A DNA stretch of 64,000 bases from Candidatus Aenigmatarchaeota archaeon (GCA_043802485.1 JAZDKZ010000006.1:2670-66669); one strand, 5' to 3'; counted from the first letter of the stretch, positions 27,936 to 63,965 are shown. Translations and numbers: made by a program. Notes: generated from the letters alone by a model not told the origin.

Positions 27936-27973
27936 ACTTTCATAATATTCTAATAGAAAACTAATCCGTAATG

Positions 27974-28001
27974 TGCGGAGGGCAGGATTTGAACCTGCGA
28001 A
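27974..28001 (-). other. Isolated 3' fragment of a tRNA (Leu-like; T arm plus acceptor strand)
   Basis: Minus strand TTC-GCAGG-TTCAAAT-CCTGC-CCTCCGC-A immediately after the rtcB stop codon; no 5' half nearby. Confidence 0.75.
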
Positions 28002-29435
28002 TTAACCTTTGACAACACCCAAAGGCTTCAATCTACAGACAATCTTGCTTACGCCTGCCTTCTCACATGTCTCGACGACTTCTGAAACGTTCTTGTAGGC
28101 AAAGTCAGCTTCCTCTGCTAACGTCTTCCAGCCAGCGCTCATAATAGAAATTCCTCTTTTTTCCAGGTCATTCTTCACATCTTCCCCTCTTTGCTTCTGG
28201 CGTGCCGCGTGCCTTGACATCACCCTGCCAGCTCCGTGAGCAGTGCTGAAAAAAGTGTCCTTTCCTGTTTCAGCCCCCACGAGCAAGTATGAACATGTTC
28301 CCATTGAACCGCCTATTATGACAGGTTGGCCAATCTTCTTGTAAATAGACGGCAGAGCCTGATGGCCTGGTGGGAAGCCTCTTGTGGAGCCTTTCCTATG
28401 TATCCATACATTTGACTTTTTCCCGTCGATTTCATGCTCTTCCAACTTTATTATGTTGTGGCTGACGTCATAGATTAACCCCAAGTCCAACTCTTCTGCG
28501 CTTCTTCTGAAAACCTCTGCAAAGCTTTCCCTTACCCAGTGAAGTATCATCTGCCTGTTGGCAAGGGCGAAATTGACAGCACAGCAGGCAGCCTTGAAAT
28601 AGTTCTGGCCCTCGTTGCTCTGGGCTGGCGCGCATGCCAGCTCCCTGTCAGGAATGTCTATCTTGTACTTCCTCATAGCCCCTTCCATGACTCTAATATA
28701 ATCGGTGGCAACCTGATGGCCTAACCCTCTTGAGCCGCAATGAATCATGGCAGTTATCTGCCCCTCTTTCTCTATTCCCATTGCCTTTGCAACCTCGGGA
28801 AGGAATATCTTGTCCACCCTCTGCACTTCCAGATAGTGGTTGCCAGAACCCAGGCTCCCAAGCTGTGGCATGCCCCTCTGCTTTGCCTTGTCCGAGACCT
28901 TTGATGGGTTTGCGTCCCTCATGCTTCCATTGTCTTCCATGCATTCCAGATCCTTTTTCCAGCCATAGCCGTTCTTTACAGCCCACTCGGCTCCTGAATT
29001 TAAAACAGAATCCAGTTGATTATAGTTTAGCCTTATCTTGCCCTTTGATCCCAGACCGCTTGGAACGTTCCTGAAAATCTTTTCTATCAGTTCCTTTATT
29101 TTCGGCTTGAGGTCCTTTTCATCAAGATTGGTTCTGAGCATCCTGACCCCACATGATATGTCATAGCCGCAAAACCCTGGTGAAATTATGCCTTTGTTAA
29201 AGTCGAAAGCGCCCACAGCTCCGATAGGAGCACCGTAGCCTTCGTGTGCGTCTGGTAGTAAGGCAATGTGCTTCAGAACTCCTGGAAGGCTGGCGCAGTT
29301 CACTGCCTGACCTACTGTCCTGTCCCCTTCGATGCTCTTCATCATCTGTTCAGAAGCATGAAGCCTGACAGGAACCAGCATCTTGCCGGTTTTGGGTATC
29401 TCCCAAGTAACGTCGTTTATCCTTTTCATCTGCAT
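28002..29435 (-). CDS. rtcB: tRNA-splicing ligase RtcB
   Basis: PDAHEGYG, GYDISCGVR, GSGNHY, HCGSRG, HRKG, STAHGAGR. Confidence 0.97.
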   Translation of the reverse strand: MQMKRINDVTWEIPKTGKMLVPVRLHASEQMMKSIEGDRTVGQAVNCASLPGVLKHIALLPDAHEGYGAPIGAVGAFDFNKGIISPGFCGYDISCGVRMLRTNLDEKDLKPKIKELIEKIFRNVPSGLGSKGKIRLNYNQLDSVLNSGAEWAVKNGYGWKKDLECMEDNGSMRDANPSKVSDKAKQRGMPQLGSLGSGNHYLEVQRVDKIFLPEVAKAMGIEKEGQITAMIHCGSRGLGHQVATDYIRVMEGAMRKYKIDIPDRELACAPAQSNEGQNYFKAACCAVNFALANRQMILHWVRESFAEVFRRSAEELDLGLIYDVSHNIIKLEEHEIDGKKSNVWIHRKGSTRGFPPGHQALPSIYKKIGQPVIIGGSMGTCSYLLVGAETGKDTFFSTAHGAGRVMSRHAARQKQRGEDVKNDLEKRGISIMSAGWKTLAEEADFAYKNVSEVVETCEKAGVSKIVCRLKPLGVVKG

Positions 29436-29502
29436 TGTATCACTAGTAATAATGTTCCTCAAACTTAATATTATTTATAAAGGTCTGATTACAATAACTC
29501 TT

Positions 29503-60668: not shown

Positions 60669-60719
60669 ATGTTCTTTTTATTTGTTGTAGTATAAATAAT
60701 TTTAATATCAGTGATTTTC

Positions 60720-62360
60720 ATGAACGATATTTTTTGGTCAGACGAGATAGCAAGCCTCATGATCAATAGGAAAAAATACAATCATATTGACAAGAGGATT
60801 GAACCTTCAAAGAGCTTTGCTATAAAGAGCTCCACTTCCATATCCGGAGTTCCGCACATAGGCAATGCTTCTGATGTCATAAGGCATGATGCGGTCGTCA
60901 GGTCCTTGAAAGAAAAGGGGATGGATGTAAGGTTCATCTGGGTGGCTGAGGATATGGATGCTTTGAGAAAGGTTCCGGCAGGAATACCTGCCAACTTCGA
61001 GAAATACCTGGGCATGCCTGTTGCGGATGTGCCATGTCCTGAAGGCTGCCACAAGACCTACAGCGAGCATTTCTGCTCAAAGTTTGTTGACAGCCTGAAA
61101 GAGTTCGGGACGTATCCAGAGTACCTGTCGACCTCGAAAGAATACAGAGCAGGCAACTTTTCTAAATGGATAAAGACGGTTTTCGAGAACCTGGATGAGG
61201 TAAGAAGCATTCTCAACAAAGGCAGGAAGATCCCTCTCCCGGATGATTGGAATCCTTGGAAGCCTGTCTGCCAGAACTGTGGCAAATTAATGACGACAAA
61301 GGTGATTGGGGTTGACGGCAACAGCGTAAGATACTCTTGCGATGACTACCAGTTCAAGCCGTACGGCGAGAAGGCCTACACAAAGCTCACAGGTTGCGGT
61401 CACAAGGGAGAGAGCGACATGAAGAACGGCAAATTGCTATGGCGTGTCGAATGGGGGATGCTCTGGGCTCACTGGAAAATAAACTTGGAAGGCGCTGGCA
61501 AGGAGCATTTCATGCCGAGCGGTTCGTTCTGGAGTGCTGGCGAGGTCGCTGAAAAGATATTCGGCTGGCCGGAGCCTTATCCTGGAAAGAACTACATACA
61601 GCCTTACGAGTATCTGACGATATCAGGCAAGAAGATGTCTGCTTCTGTTGGCAATGTCGTTTCCACATGGGAATGGCCAACGTTCGCTCCGGCGCAGATA
61701 CTCAGGATGATATTTCTGAAAAAGCCGAATCGTGTGAGGGACTTTTCATATGAATATATTCCAAAGTACATGGACGAGTTCTACAGACTGCAGAGGATAT
61801 ATTTCGGCAAGGAGGAGGACGACAGGGAGGAATTCTCCAAGAGGCTCTATATGATGAGCGAGGTTTATGTGCCTGATAAGATGCCTGCGCAGATACCTTT
61901 TGAATATGCTGCCATGGTATCTCAAATGGTTCCTGAGAAAAATTCTTTAGAAAAGGCTGTGCAGTTATTCAGGGCTACAGGTCATCTTGGCCAGGATTAT
62001 GACGAAGCCAGAATCAAGAAGATTCTGAGCATGGCAAAGAACTGGTCTGACAGGTACGGAGGCGACAGCTACAAGATAAAACTTATGGAAGAGCCGTCAA
62101 GGGAATTTTTGGAAAATTTGAGCAGCGACCAGAAGAAAGCGATAAAGATGCTGGCCGAAGCGCTTGCCGAAGACTTTTCAGAGAAAGAACTTTATAATAA
62201 GATTTTTGACATAATCAAGGAGACTGGCATAAAATCAAAGGAGTTCTTTGGAGCAGTTTACAGCATCCTCTTAGGCAAGCCTTGGGGTCCCAGGCTAACT
62301 CCTTTCATATTGATAATCGGAAGAGAAAGAGTAAAAAATATTCTGGACAAGGTTCAATAG
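60720..62360 (+). CDS. lysS: Class I lysyl-tRNA synthetase
   Basis: SGVPHIGN, LRKVP, GKL.WRVEW, KMSAS.GN, GPRL. Confidence 0.96.
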   Translation: MNDIFWSDEIASLMINRKKYNHIDKRIEPSKSFAIKSSTSISGVPHIGNASDVIRHDAVVRSLKEKGMDVRFIWVAEDMDALRKVPAGIPANFEKYLGMPVADVPCPEGCHKTYSEHFCSKFVDSLKEFGTYPEYLSTSKEYRAGNFSKWIKTVFENLDEVRSILNKGRKIPLPDDWNPWKPVCQNCGKLMTTKVIGVDGNSVRYSCDDYQFKPYGEKAYTKLTGCGHKGESDMKNGKLLWRVEWGMLWAHWKINLEGAGKEHFMPSGSFWSAGEVAEKIFGWPEPYPGKNYIQPYEYLTISGKKMSASVGNVVSTWEWPTFAPAQILRMIFLKKPNRVRDFSYEYIPKYMDEFYRLQRIYFGKEEDDREEFSKRLYMMSEVYVPDKMPAQIPFEYAAMVSQMVPEKNSLEKAVQLFRATGHLGQDYDEARIKKILSMAKNWSDRYGGDSYKIKLMEEPSREFLENLSSDQKKAIKMLAEALAEDFSEKELYNKIFDIIKETGIKSKEFFGAVYSILLGKPWGPRLTPFILIIGRERVKNILDKVQ

Positions 62361-63079
62361 CCGAACCTTCTCTGCCGTCTGCTGTACTCTTTGACGCATC
62401 TTATGAGGTCCCTTTTGGTAAAGTCTGGCCAGCATTTTTTCATGACTATGAGCTCTGCGTAAGCGACCTGCCATGGCATGAAGCCGGATATCCTCTTCTC
62501 GCCTCCGGTCCTTATCAGCAGGTCTATGTCGTCCTTCACCAGCAGGTTGTCCTTTATCGTTTTTTCAGTGACTGTGACAACGCCTGTCTCCAAAGCTTTC
62601 TTGGCTATCTTCTTTACAGCCTGCGTGAGCTCGAACTTGCCGCCGTAGGCAACAAGAATATTGAAGACCCTTCTGTTGTACTTTTCAGTCTTTTTCATTA
62701 TCTTGCCCATCACTTTTCTCAAACCCAAGGGCAGTTTTGTCAGGTCTCCGACAAACCGCATTCTTATCTCATACTTGTCCAGAAAGCTCTTCTTCTCGTT
62801 CTCTAGCTTTTCTAGCTCTTTCTGGAAAAGACCTAGAAGGGCATTGACCTCCATTTTGGACCTGTTCAGGTTTTCAGTTGATAGGGCGAAAACAGAGACT
62901 TTGGGTATCTTCAAATCGACGCACCACTCGAACAATTGCTCCAGCTTCTCAGCTCCGAAAGAATGCCCTTGCCAGGGCTTTAGGCTGTGCTTAAGGGCCC
63001 ATCGTCTGTTAATGGGGTTTTACTAAACCTTTCCATCCAGGATGACGCCCAAGTGACTAGGTATTGCTGTTGCCTTCAA
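62354..63079 (-). CDS. uppS: cis-prenyltransferase (undecaprenyl diphosphate synthase family); exons 63079-63031 and 63009-62354
   Basis: IPSHLGVILDG|NRRWA after removal of 21 nt; FALSTEN, AYGG, DLLIRTGGEKRISGF, WPDF, RRFG; TTG start with GGGTGGT ribosome-binding site. Confidence 0.92.
63010..63030 (-). other. 21-nt BHB intron in uppS mRNA
   Basis: Minus strand ATGG-AA|A-GGTTT-AGTA-AAACC-CCAT-TA|A; unspliced frame contains TAG TAA. Confidence 0.85.
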
Positions 63080-63965
63080 ATAAATACCACCCTATTTTTG
63101 TTCTTTTCATTATGCCAGATTTGACTAATATGTGCAAATAAAGCAATATAGTGTTTCTGTGCATTTTAACATTATATTTTTTCTCTATATAAGTTTTCAA
63201 CTCCCTGAAATTCAGATTTTCAGGATACGAACCTCTTAATTTGCTATAAAGCTCTTTCAAAATTGGCGCTTTGGCGTTAGCCCTTACAGGGAACAACTTA
63301 ATTAGTTCTTCTATATCTGTTTTTCTATTTCCCCTGATTATTTCCAGTTTAGTCTTTTTAGGACCTTCAAGATTCTTCAAGAAGAAACCAAAAGATTTGC
63401 TATAGAAACCGTACTTCCATCTTTTCGACCATCTTTCGAACTTTCTTTTGAAAAGCTTAACTCTGAGTTTGTTTTCCTTTAGAATATAGACCATTTGATC
63501 CCTTAGCTTCTTACTTATCGATGTAAATTCTATTGTTCCGTCCAACTTCACAGAGCCGTCAAAAATCAATGCTGATGAAACAAATGATATCTTGTATTTA
63601 TTGCCTCCCTTCATGATTTCTTCTGGTATTCTGACTATGCTCCCTTTCTTTCCATAGGGAAACCCTAGGCTGTGAAGGTATGGTATCAGATGTTTATTGC
63701 CTATTCTGAACCTAAAACCTCCCTTTAGAGGTTTTATTGAGCCTTTCTTACCTGTTATCTCCTTTACCCATTCCGAGATCAACTTTACATTCTCAAACCA
63801 TTCATCCGTCAATTCGAAATAACTAGAATAATAGTGGTGACCATTCCACATCTTTTTCTGCCTGTAAATAGTGCCGTCTGTGGCAAGGGCGCCGCACAGC
63901 TTGCATATCGTAATTCCTATATTTCCTTCATGGATTTTAGAATTTGTAAGGGAAAAACCTTCCAT
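63057..63965 (-). CDS. Free-standing double-motif LAGLIDADG endonuclease-like protein with C-terminal winged helix
   Basis: LCGALATDGTI and FVSSALIFDGSV motifs, intervening LGFPYGKK..IPEEI; overlaps the uppS start. Confidence 0.8.
   Translation of the reverse strand: MEGFSLTNSKIHEGNIGITICKLCGALATDGTIYRQKKMWNGHHYYSSYFELTDEWFENVKLISEWVKEITGKKGSIKPLKGGFRFRIGNKHLIPYLHSLGFPYGKKGSIVRIPEEIMKGGNKYKISFVSSALIFDGSVKLDGTIEFTSISKKLRDQMVYILKENKLRVKLFKRKFERWSKRWKYGFYSKSFGFFLKNLEGPKKTKLEIIRGNRKTDIEELIKLFPVRANAKAPILKELYSKLRGSYPENLNFRELKTYIEKKYNVKMHRNTILLYLHILVKSGIMKRTKIGWYLFEGNSNT

Follow-up and report, generated by a model that had tools for sequence, protein, structure and literature searches.

The window, i.e. 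the whole stretch of 64,000 nt that was analysed, belongs to a groundwater Aenigmatarchaeota (DPANN) genome, here G000, and carries uppS on the minus strand at 62354-63079, as read from the window sequence. G000 is a metagenome-assembled draft of 768,849 nt in 7 contigs with 43% G+C and a completeness of 89%. Starting from TTG at 63079, the uppS frame reads M KATAIPSHLGVILDG, continues with KV, two stop codons and NPI, and then resumes as NRRWALKH... The two stops are TAG at 63025-63023 and TAA at 63022-63020, and the gene ends with its own stop, TGA, at 62356-62354. In the order of UppS, GVILDG is followed by 21 nt at 63010-63030 and then by NRRWA. A previous sequence-only reading had described uppS as split in this way, by 21 nt with TAG and TAA between the two peptide motifs, and direct reading of the frame bears this out.

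Three parts can be distinguished, all on the minus strand. Exon 1 (63031-63079) consists of the TTG start, 16 codons (MKATAIPSHLGVILDG) and the first base of an Asn codon. The predicted intron (63010-63030) reads A-GGUUU-AGUA-AAACC-CCAU-UA and contains both in-frame stops. Exon 2 (62354-63009) begins with the AC of the Asn codon, followed by RRWALKH... to TGA. Deletion of 63010-63030 leaves 705 nt, which correspond to 234 codons plus the stop, and restores ...LDGNRRWA. The match to PF01255 is confined to NRRWA onward, i.e. to exon 2 (model 5-219, E 3e-67 to 9e-67, 225 bits vs a cut-off of 27). With X placed at the two stops, TIGR00055 (uppS) spans the insert and starts in exon 1 at model position 1 (model 1-228, 205 bits vs a cut-off of 109.6). 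The catalytic role of the Asp in the DGNRR(W/F)A motif is known from the E. coli UPPS literature. This motif is split in the genomic frame and is contiguous only after 63010-63030 is removed. Exon 2 has no internal stop, no further lesion was found across the 234 codons, and the 89%-complete genome holds a single PF01255 locus.

At 63087-63092 of the same strand, 7 nt upstream of TTG, lies GGGTGG, which may serve as a Shine-Dalgarno-like element and is located within the last codons (GWY) of an upstream ORF. The arrangement GGGTGGTAYAAA...TTG also occurs in four other intron-bearing loci (G065, G046, G108, G117). The upstream ORF itself (63057-63965, minus strand, 302 aa) ends 20 nt inside uppS exon 1 and gave no Pfam or NCBIfam match. 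It is syntenic with uppS, since a similar C-terminus (HRNT.L.YLN.LVKS...GWYK) precedes uppS in the same four loci. An Rfam search over 62300-63300 returned nothing relevant, its sole match being at chance level (E 0.75).

RNA structure and covariation

EndA cleaves each of the two bulges in bulge-helix-bulge (BHB) motifs behind the second base. The elements of such a motif that had been named for the insert are each found where they were placed, on the minus strand. The 5' strand of the central helix, AUGG (63033-63036), belongs to exon 1 and begins at the third base of the Asp codon region GAU-GG, while its 3' strand, CCAU (63012-63015), lies in the intron. Between them are the 5' bulge AAA (63030-63032) and the inner hairpin GGUUU/AAACC with the loop AGUA (63016-63029; GGUUU 63029-63025, loop 63024-63021, AAACC 63020-63016), and the 3' bulge is UAA (63009-63011). 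Applied in silico, the EndA rule puts the cuts at 63031/63030 and 63010/63009 and excises exactly 21 nt; the junction GAU GGA AAC AGA CGA and the 234-aa protein of the sequence-only reading were reproduced in this way.

The minimum-energy fold of 62990-63060 (-21.5 kcal/mol) contains the inner hairpin and the central helix, together with extra exon-exon pairing (CUG/CAG, UCAUC/GAUGG, GGGC/GCCC). In this minimum-energy register U63011 pairs with G63037, which lengthens the helix to 5 bp and shortens the 3' bulge to 2 nt, in place of the canonical 4 bp and 3 nt. As the fold reaches a z-score of just -2.0 and is equalled by 7 of 200 shuffles, the G000 sequence by itself is weak evidence. The case is therefore carried by comparative data.

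These data come from an alignment (A2) of 15 distinct sequences with an insert at the G000 position (site 1), in which the pairing of a specified structure was counted in comparison to 500 shuffles. In the alignment 84% of the cells are paired vs 77.3% in the shuffles, and the covariation score is 0.293 vs 0.181; for both measures 0 of the 500 shuffles scored as high. When the register was slid, at most 55% of the cells were paired. The central helix (columns 14-17/47-50) is paired in 98.3% of its cells, and its pair 15-49 is C-G in nine sequences, U-A in five and U-G in one. The wobble position of the exon-1 Asp codon (GAY) falls in column 15, so that covariation here links a synonymous exon site to a base of the intron. 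For the inner helix, 88.4% of the cells are paired and four of its five pairs are altered on both sides; this helix is absent only from the 13-nt variant of G038. The outer exon-exon helix had been called weak before, and at 71% pairing it is weak though not absent: columns 12-55 are unpaired in 11 of the 15 sequences, the first pair is kept as G-C or G-U in all of them, and G046 has the full 6 bp. Such a weak outer helix fits a relaxed (HBh'-like) BHB.

Both bulges are three columns wide in 15/15 sequences, and the first bulge is AAA throughout. In silico removal of bulge-1 base 3 through bulge-2 base 2 regained DGNRRWA in all 15 site-1 sequences. The lengths removed are 13, 16, 19, 19, 20 (six times), 21, 21, 22, 26 and 33 nt; 12 of the 15 introns shift the frame, and all 15 unspliced frames meet stops. 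The same rule, again applied in silico, regained the frame at a second position further downstream (site 2) in four of four cases, where 29, 29, 32 and 52 nt are removed, and likewise for the 31 nt of G004. The Gly codon of the motif, which provides the first A of the first bulge, is GGA in all 15 bearers, compared with 16 of the 37 DGNRRW genes that are intact (Fisher p 9e-5, with the caveat that relatedness makes the genomes non-independent). Minimum-energy folds display the helix-bulge-hairpin core for 9 of 10 site-1 sequences, for 3 of 3 distinct site-2 sequences and for G004; the core is missing from the minimum-energy fold of G118. The folds of G046 and G004 have textbook hBHBh' shapes.

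Recurrence and evolution of the uppS insert

The insert is common to other genomes and is not private to G000. The site-1 core pattern matched 10 of the 371 phylum genomes, once in each; these 10 come from three families, and a control with the reversed pattern gave 0. A pattern scan of metagenomes returned 68 stretches, 6 of which (5 distinct) adjoin UppS-coding sequence; in one case the protein is 71% identical to that of G000 and the intron is very similar. The other 62 matches lack homology to UppS and were put down to chance.

Within the order of G000, PF01255 was found in 40 of the 41 genomes searched; of the 38 loci examined, 35 contain an uninterrupted DGNRR, including three genomes of the same genus (G001-G003). 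The three interrupted loci are those of G000, of G038 (13 nt, same phase) and of G004 (31 nt, two codons upstream). In a second order, that of G117, a PF01255 match was obtained for 93 of the 118 genomes searched. From these, all 11 fetched loci were considered in which the match starts after model position 2 and is not cut by a contig end. Nine of the 11 have an insert exactly at the G000 position, and G067 is intact. Four of the 11 (G123, G128, G125, G135) have an insert at site 2 (GHKYGA/K, 24 codons downstream), three of them in addition to site 1, and the site-2 hairpin shows compensatory changes. The uppS genes of relatives, to which the sequence-only reading had pointed, thus display both presence or absence of the intron and compensatory changes. 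Overall, uppS introns occupy three distinct sites with up to two per gene, and at least 13 of 371 species-level genomes carry one or more. These counts are lower bounds, as other orders were screened by the site-1 pattern only and the phylum-wide PF01255 search covers the 150 matches listed out of 370.

A maximum-likelihood tree of 56 uppS sequences, based on the region downstream of site 2, places G000 as sister to the intronless G003 (support 100/94), with a terminal branch of 0.031 for G000 vs 0.13 for G003. The 13 intron-bearing rows of the tree need 11 state changes, at least 10 of which are forced by well-supported branches, and the bearers show no clustering beyond that of shuffled labels, 150 of 500 of which gave a number as low. 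This scattered presence requires many losses, gains or recombination events. For the pair G135 (two introns) and G133 (none), the DNA is ∼95% identical downstream of site 2 and roughly 60% identical upstream, which suggests an exchange of the 5' segment by recombination with the breakpoint at site 2. The history of the introns is not necessarily mirrored by a tree that covers the 3' part.

Logan contigs X1 and X2, obtained from two groundwater runs (1149 nt each), contain 62912-63400 with 0 differences over 489 nt. The insert is hence supported by a separate assembly, whose runs may be the source samples of G000 itself. None of the sequencing runs listed for the locus is from RNA. A ∼90%-identical variant occurs in the same two runs and in a third run from another study. 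Its contig departs from the window at 62986 and reads DGNRRWAVKK, the insert being absent. Of the listed differences between variant and window, 33 of 40 are located at third codon positions, as counted by hand.

These observations bear on the possibility that uppS in G000 is a recently inactivated pseudogene, in which the 21 nt would represent a disabling insertion and the polyprenyl carrier or lipids would be obtained from a host. DPANN archaea often have no lipid pathways, and no PF01255 was found in 52 of the 371 phylum genomes searched; the closest relatives G001-G003 and the ∼90%-identical strain are also without the insert. However, a disabling insertion is difficult to reconcile with an insert of the same phase in 10 genomes of three families and in five metagenome contigs, with its covarying pairs and with the fixed GGA codon. 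Nor would it account for the essential EF-2 gene of G125, which has two such inserts at its only locus (see below). The sequence-only reading had raised a second intact uppS combined with relaxed selection on this copy, but only one PF01255 locus was found in the 89%-complete genome and the gene is undegraded. Judged by its single copy, the lack of any other stop or lesion in 234 codons, its short terminal branch and the prevalence of third-position differences, uppS in G000 is not decaying. We therefore consider a pseudogene improbable.

Splicing machinery and competing explanations

G000 encodes EndA in one ORF of 182 aa at 89235-89783 of contig C7 (PF01974 and PF02778; TIGR00324 at 116 bits). 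No further match to PF01974 or PF02778 that could indicate a second EndA subunit was obtained at E<=1 in the 89%-complete genome. The gene of the RNA ligase RtcB is part of the window (28002-29462, minus strand) and comprises an ORF of 486 aa (PF01139 model 1-426, 575 bits, at window 28005-29309, corresponding to G000:C6:30674-31978); RtcB is the presumed exon ligase here. Aragorn predicted an intron in 22 of 44 tRNA calls of G000, which are uncurated and include at least one call that overlaps rtcB and is probably false. For tRNA-Gly(CCC), visual inspection showed a 15-nt intron with the BHB uucc-caa-loop-ggaa-aca, from which the EndA rule yields the mature anticodon loop.

In agreement with the sequence-only reading, we regard it as highly probable that 63010-63030 is a real BHB (tRNA-type) intron of the uppS pre-mRNA. 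This view is based on the same phase of the inserts in relatives, on the covarying pairs, on the frame restored in 15/15 site-1 sequences, 4/4 site-2 sequences and G004, and on the encoded enzymes. We propose that the exon sequence AUGG pairs with CCAU of the intron, flanked by the bulges AAA and UAA, while the hairpin GGUUU/AAACC would stack on this helix. The single 182-aa EndA, which would also remove the tRNA introns, is predicted to cut after base 2 of each bulge, and RtcB would then ligate the exons to GAU GGA AAC AGA CGA. The spliced mRNA would encode a cis-prenyltransferase of 234 aa with an intact DGNRRWA. The unspliced mRNA would be expected to yield nothing more than a peptide of 18 residues, or else a protein truncated at its N-terminus and without the catalytic Asp. 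Synthesis of UppS would in this case depend on both cleavage and ligation.

The ribosome could also hop over the 21 nt by a programmed event, like the translational bypassing in phage T4 gene 60. The stop codon soon after the take-off region and the hairpin in the gap would fit such a mechanism, and in G038 the codon GGA indeed recurs just before the resume point. In G000, however, neither GGA nor AAG has a matching landing codon ahead of AAC AGA, and in G004 the only downstream AUA lands out of frame. Moreover, bypassing predicts neither the helix of 4 bp and its two 3-nt bulges nor the covariation between exon and intron, which leaves it very unlikely. 

An equally slim chance is given to a BHB that is cut by EndA but acts mainly as a switch, with inefficient or conditional splicing throttling UppS or destroying the mRNA. 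The location of the site in the catalytic motif at the 5' end, where unspliced RNA would yield no active enzyme, is in line with a switch. The same holds for HVO_1309 of Haloferax, the expression of which, according to PMC7714728, seems to be influenced by the removal of a BHB intron from the 5' UTR. On the other hand, the exact restoration of the frame in every case argues for productive ligation as the selected outcome, and close relatives manage without the intron. A switch overlaps with the explanation as a BHB intron and differs from it only in purpose. 

An assembly or sequencing artefact, as might be suspected for a metagenome-assembled draft in 7 contigs, can practically be dismissed in view of the 21 nt in the Logan contigs of two runs, identical over 489 nt, and of homologous inserts in assemblies from other studies.

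Other protein genes and related systems

Further BHB mini-introns in protein genes were searched for by a scan that demanded a helix of 4 bp containing no more than one G-U pair, two or more A per bulge, an inner helix for introns above 16 nt, and an intron length of 11-80 nt. In addition, the ungapped junction peptide had to match an ORF of a partner genome over at least 10 residues on the left and at least 12 on the right, with at least 50% identity per side. By its construction the scan is blind to introns common to both partners, to long introns and to C/G-rich bulges. For G000 vs G003 and vs G125, uppS alone passed; nothing passed for G003 vs G000, and cbf5 of G000 is uninterrupted.

Other approaches mainly produced false candidates. 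An initial genome-wide BHB scan gave ∼3600 ORF joins, equal to controls with shifted cuts. Since any BHB-like pair across a gene boundary joins two ORFs, such counts are uninformative. In the first version of the partner scan, six of seven passes in G000 were false, being either antisense or cases in which the ortholog is matched by the unspliced frame as it stands, and so were all five passes in G003. A tblastn comparison of HSP pairs between G000 and G003 yielded 15 candidate breaks, and the eight inspected were all antisense ORFs or gene boundaries; this comparison missed uppS, because an exon of 16 codons is invisible to the method.

In the genus g64 of the second order, the scan was applied to the nearly complete fetched genomes G125 and G124. 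It recovered site 2 of uppS in G125 and detected two introns in the only EF-2 locus of this genome. The first has 13 nt (AEEMAG/KVMFTW; CGGC-AAA-UUUAAA-GCCG-AAA) and the second 20 nt (DTPGHVD/FGGDVT; GUGG-AUA-hairpin-CCAU-AAU), and by tblastn the middle exon lies in another frame than its neighbours. Candidates in G124 are a 35-nt intron in the gene of RNase HII (GIDEAG/RGALIGP), a 21-nt in-frame intron with TAG in that of DNA polymerase B (EVRGFE/TVRRDW) and a 31-nt intron (CPYCGY/RIFVKMR) in a gene that we take to be RpoP-like from its motif. Pfam confirmed the EF-2 domains, RNase_HII from model position 9 and DNA_pol_B. The EndA cutting rule also works in silico for the EF-2, RNase HII, PolB and RpoP-like introns of these two genomes. 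Each of the g64 introns is absent from the sister genome, which follows from the design of the scan. A further candidate in G124, L19e, turned out to be false on inspection.

The expectation of the sequence-only reading that such introns are systematically missed thus holds only in part: it gains from EF-2, RNase HII, PolB and the RpoP-like gene in g64, but within G000 the genome-wide scan for further inserts found uppS alone. As a tentative generalization, which we think somewhat more doubtful than credible, BHB mini-introns of 13-50 nt might be a general and fast-turning-over feature of protein genes in Aenigmatarchaeota and perhaps in other DPANN. They would favour codons that belong to highly conserved catalytic motifs of essential genes (uppS DGNRR, EF-2 DTPGHVD/F, RNase HII GIDEAG/RG, PolB RGFE/VRRDW) and would be gained, lost and exchanged by recombination. 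Expression of these genes would be tied to the tRNA-splicing enzymes, while standard gene calling and estimates of completeness would overlook or truncate all of them.

For archaeal protein genes, the known precedent is the BHB intron in the pre-mRNA of cbf5 (pseudouridine synthase) from Crenarchaeota (reported in Watanabe 2002 and Yokobori 2009, PMC2738675). PMC7714728 names this case, first reported in 2002, as the only mRNA intron known by 2020 besides its own 5'-UTR case. The introns of uppS and cbf5 have in common that a tRNA-type BHB intron is located in a protein gene, with presumed cutting by EndA and re-ligation, and that presence is patchy, through gain or loss between relatives. Unlike cbf5, the gene is uppS, the lineage is Aenigmatarchaeota of the DPANN, the introns are far shorter (13-33 nt at site 1), and uppS has three distinct sites with up to two introns per gene. 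Work by Yoshinari in 2006 reportedly linked the splicing of cbf5 to a hetero-oligomeric EndA, whereas the alpha-beta type is not seen in G000, with one EndA ORF in the 89%-complete genome. In kind, the uppS intron matches that of cbf5; its novelty lies in the gene and the lineage, in the size of the introns and how many sites they occupy, and in the apparent type of EndA. According to PMC5829648, the alpha4 EndA was long regarded as strict, which counts against the intron reading, although DPANN alpha4 enzymes with an extra loop accompany more disrupted tRNA genes. If our finding holds, a single-subunit EndA may handle mRNA substrates as well.

With uppS, a second archaeal coding gene would have a BHB intron, in a different superphylum and with comparative structural evidence, and the candidates from relatives indicate that a few essential genes (EF-2, RNase HII, PolB, RpoP-like) may have such introns. 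Some archaeal protein genes apparently need RNA splicing, and splicing of mRNA by the tRNA machinery would not be a crenarchaeal curiosity. Gene callers would truncate or pseudogenise the affected genes and so distort metabolic reconstructions of DPANN; G000, for instance, would wrongly be scored as having no functional UppS. The scattered presence among near-identical genes would also offer a tractable system for the gain and loss of BHB introns.

Like BHB introns of archaeal pre-tRNAs, among them short and non-canonical ones, the uppS intron has a 4-bp helix, two 3-nt bulges and predicted cuts after bulge base 2, presumably by the same enzymes. It differs from them in its weak outer helix and in the host RNA, which is an mRNA, so that Asp-Gly-Asn has to be encoded by the helix strand of the exon as well, as reflected by the fixed GGA and the covarying wobble base of GAY. 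An mRNA as the substrate of the archaeal splicing endonuclease is shared with HVO_1309 of Haloferax volcanii, for which PMC7714728 describes a BHB intron in the 5' UTR; unlike this untranslated leader, it is the coding sequence that is interrupted in uppS, and removal is needed for the frame. In full-text searches of the main text of open-access papers, we found no report of a BHB intron in uppS, EF-2, RNase HII, PolB or any DPANN protein gene. The accessible parts of PMC13149111, PMC12397907 and PMC3082918 contain nothing on mRNA introns, apart from a mention of IRE1 splicing in PMC13149111.

A comparison can also be drawn with a eukaryotic system, to which no homology is claimed. In eukaryotes, HAC1 and XBP1 are cut by IRE1 and joined by a tRNA ligase or RtcB. 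They differ from uppS in the nuclease, which is IRE1 and not EndA, in their twin stem-loops and in their regulatory role. Common to both is a small coding intron that is independent of the spliceosome, the removal of which changes the frame and is finished by a tRNA ligase.

Genes adjacent to uppS

On the minus strand, uppS is preceded by an ORF of 302 aa (63057-63965) that has no family match in Pfam or NCBIfam and whose 3' end lies 20 nt within uppS exon 1. The GGGTGG motif ahead of the uppS TTG start is made by the last codons of this ORF (GWY). Since a similar C-terminus is encoded upstream of uppS in four other Aenigmatarchaeota genomes (G065, G046, G108 and G117), the ORF and uppS look, from sequence, like a translationally coupled and syntenic pair. 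On the other side, a class I lysyl-tRNA synthetase gene (60711-62360, plus strand; PF01921, 324 bits) is convergent with uppS, and the 3' ends of the two genes share 7 nt.

Variation of uppS between genomes and populations

Judged by sequence comparison, uppS of the Aenigmatarchaeota genomes G135 (L110) and G133 (L134) is a mosaic with its breakpoint at an intron site, because identity drops from ∼95% downstream of intron site 2 to only ∼60% upstream of it, and because G135 has introns at both sites and G133 at none.

A second population with intronless uppS, ∼90% identical to the window over 62358-62986, occurs alongside in the groundwater metagenome runs X1 and X2, and was found in run X3 from another study too. 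Position 62986, where its similarity to the window stops, lies 24 nt downstream of the intron. Additional matches to PF01255, the UppS family, were obtained in G029 (C49:13764-14444; 107 bits) and G106 (C98:2916-3281; model positions 1-119), with one in-frame stop each, TAG and TAA, respectively. Each may be another copy that is interrupted or in decay.

Other putative interruptions

The PolB frame of G124 has a second break ∼70 codons upstream of its 21-nt intron (L277:12824-13373, minus strand, contig C4). The open frame begins MNEKIEYL and is preceded by ∼200 nt holding stops in the same frame; the gene could be split, or could contain a longer insertion exceeding the 80-nt limit of our scan.

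In intron mode, Aragorn called a tRNA-Phe with a 180-nt intron at 27973-28237 of the window (C6:30642-30906 of its genome, G000). This call, probably a false one, overlaps the rtcB ORF (28002-29462) at its 3' end. Outside the window, Aragorn predicted a tRNA-Cys with a 454-nt intron (G000:C6:219794-220322). This intron is Cys-rich and coding-like in appearance, and may carry an intron-borne ORF.
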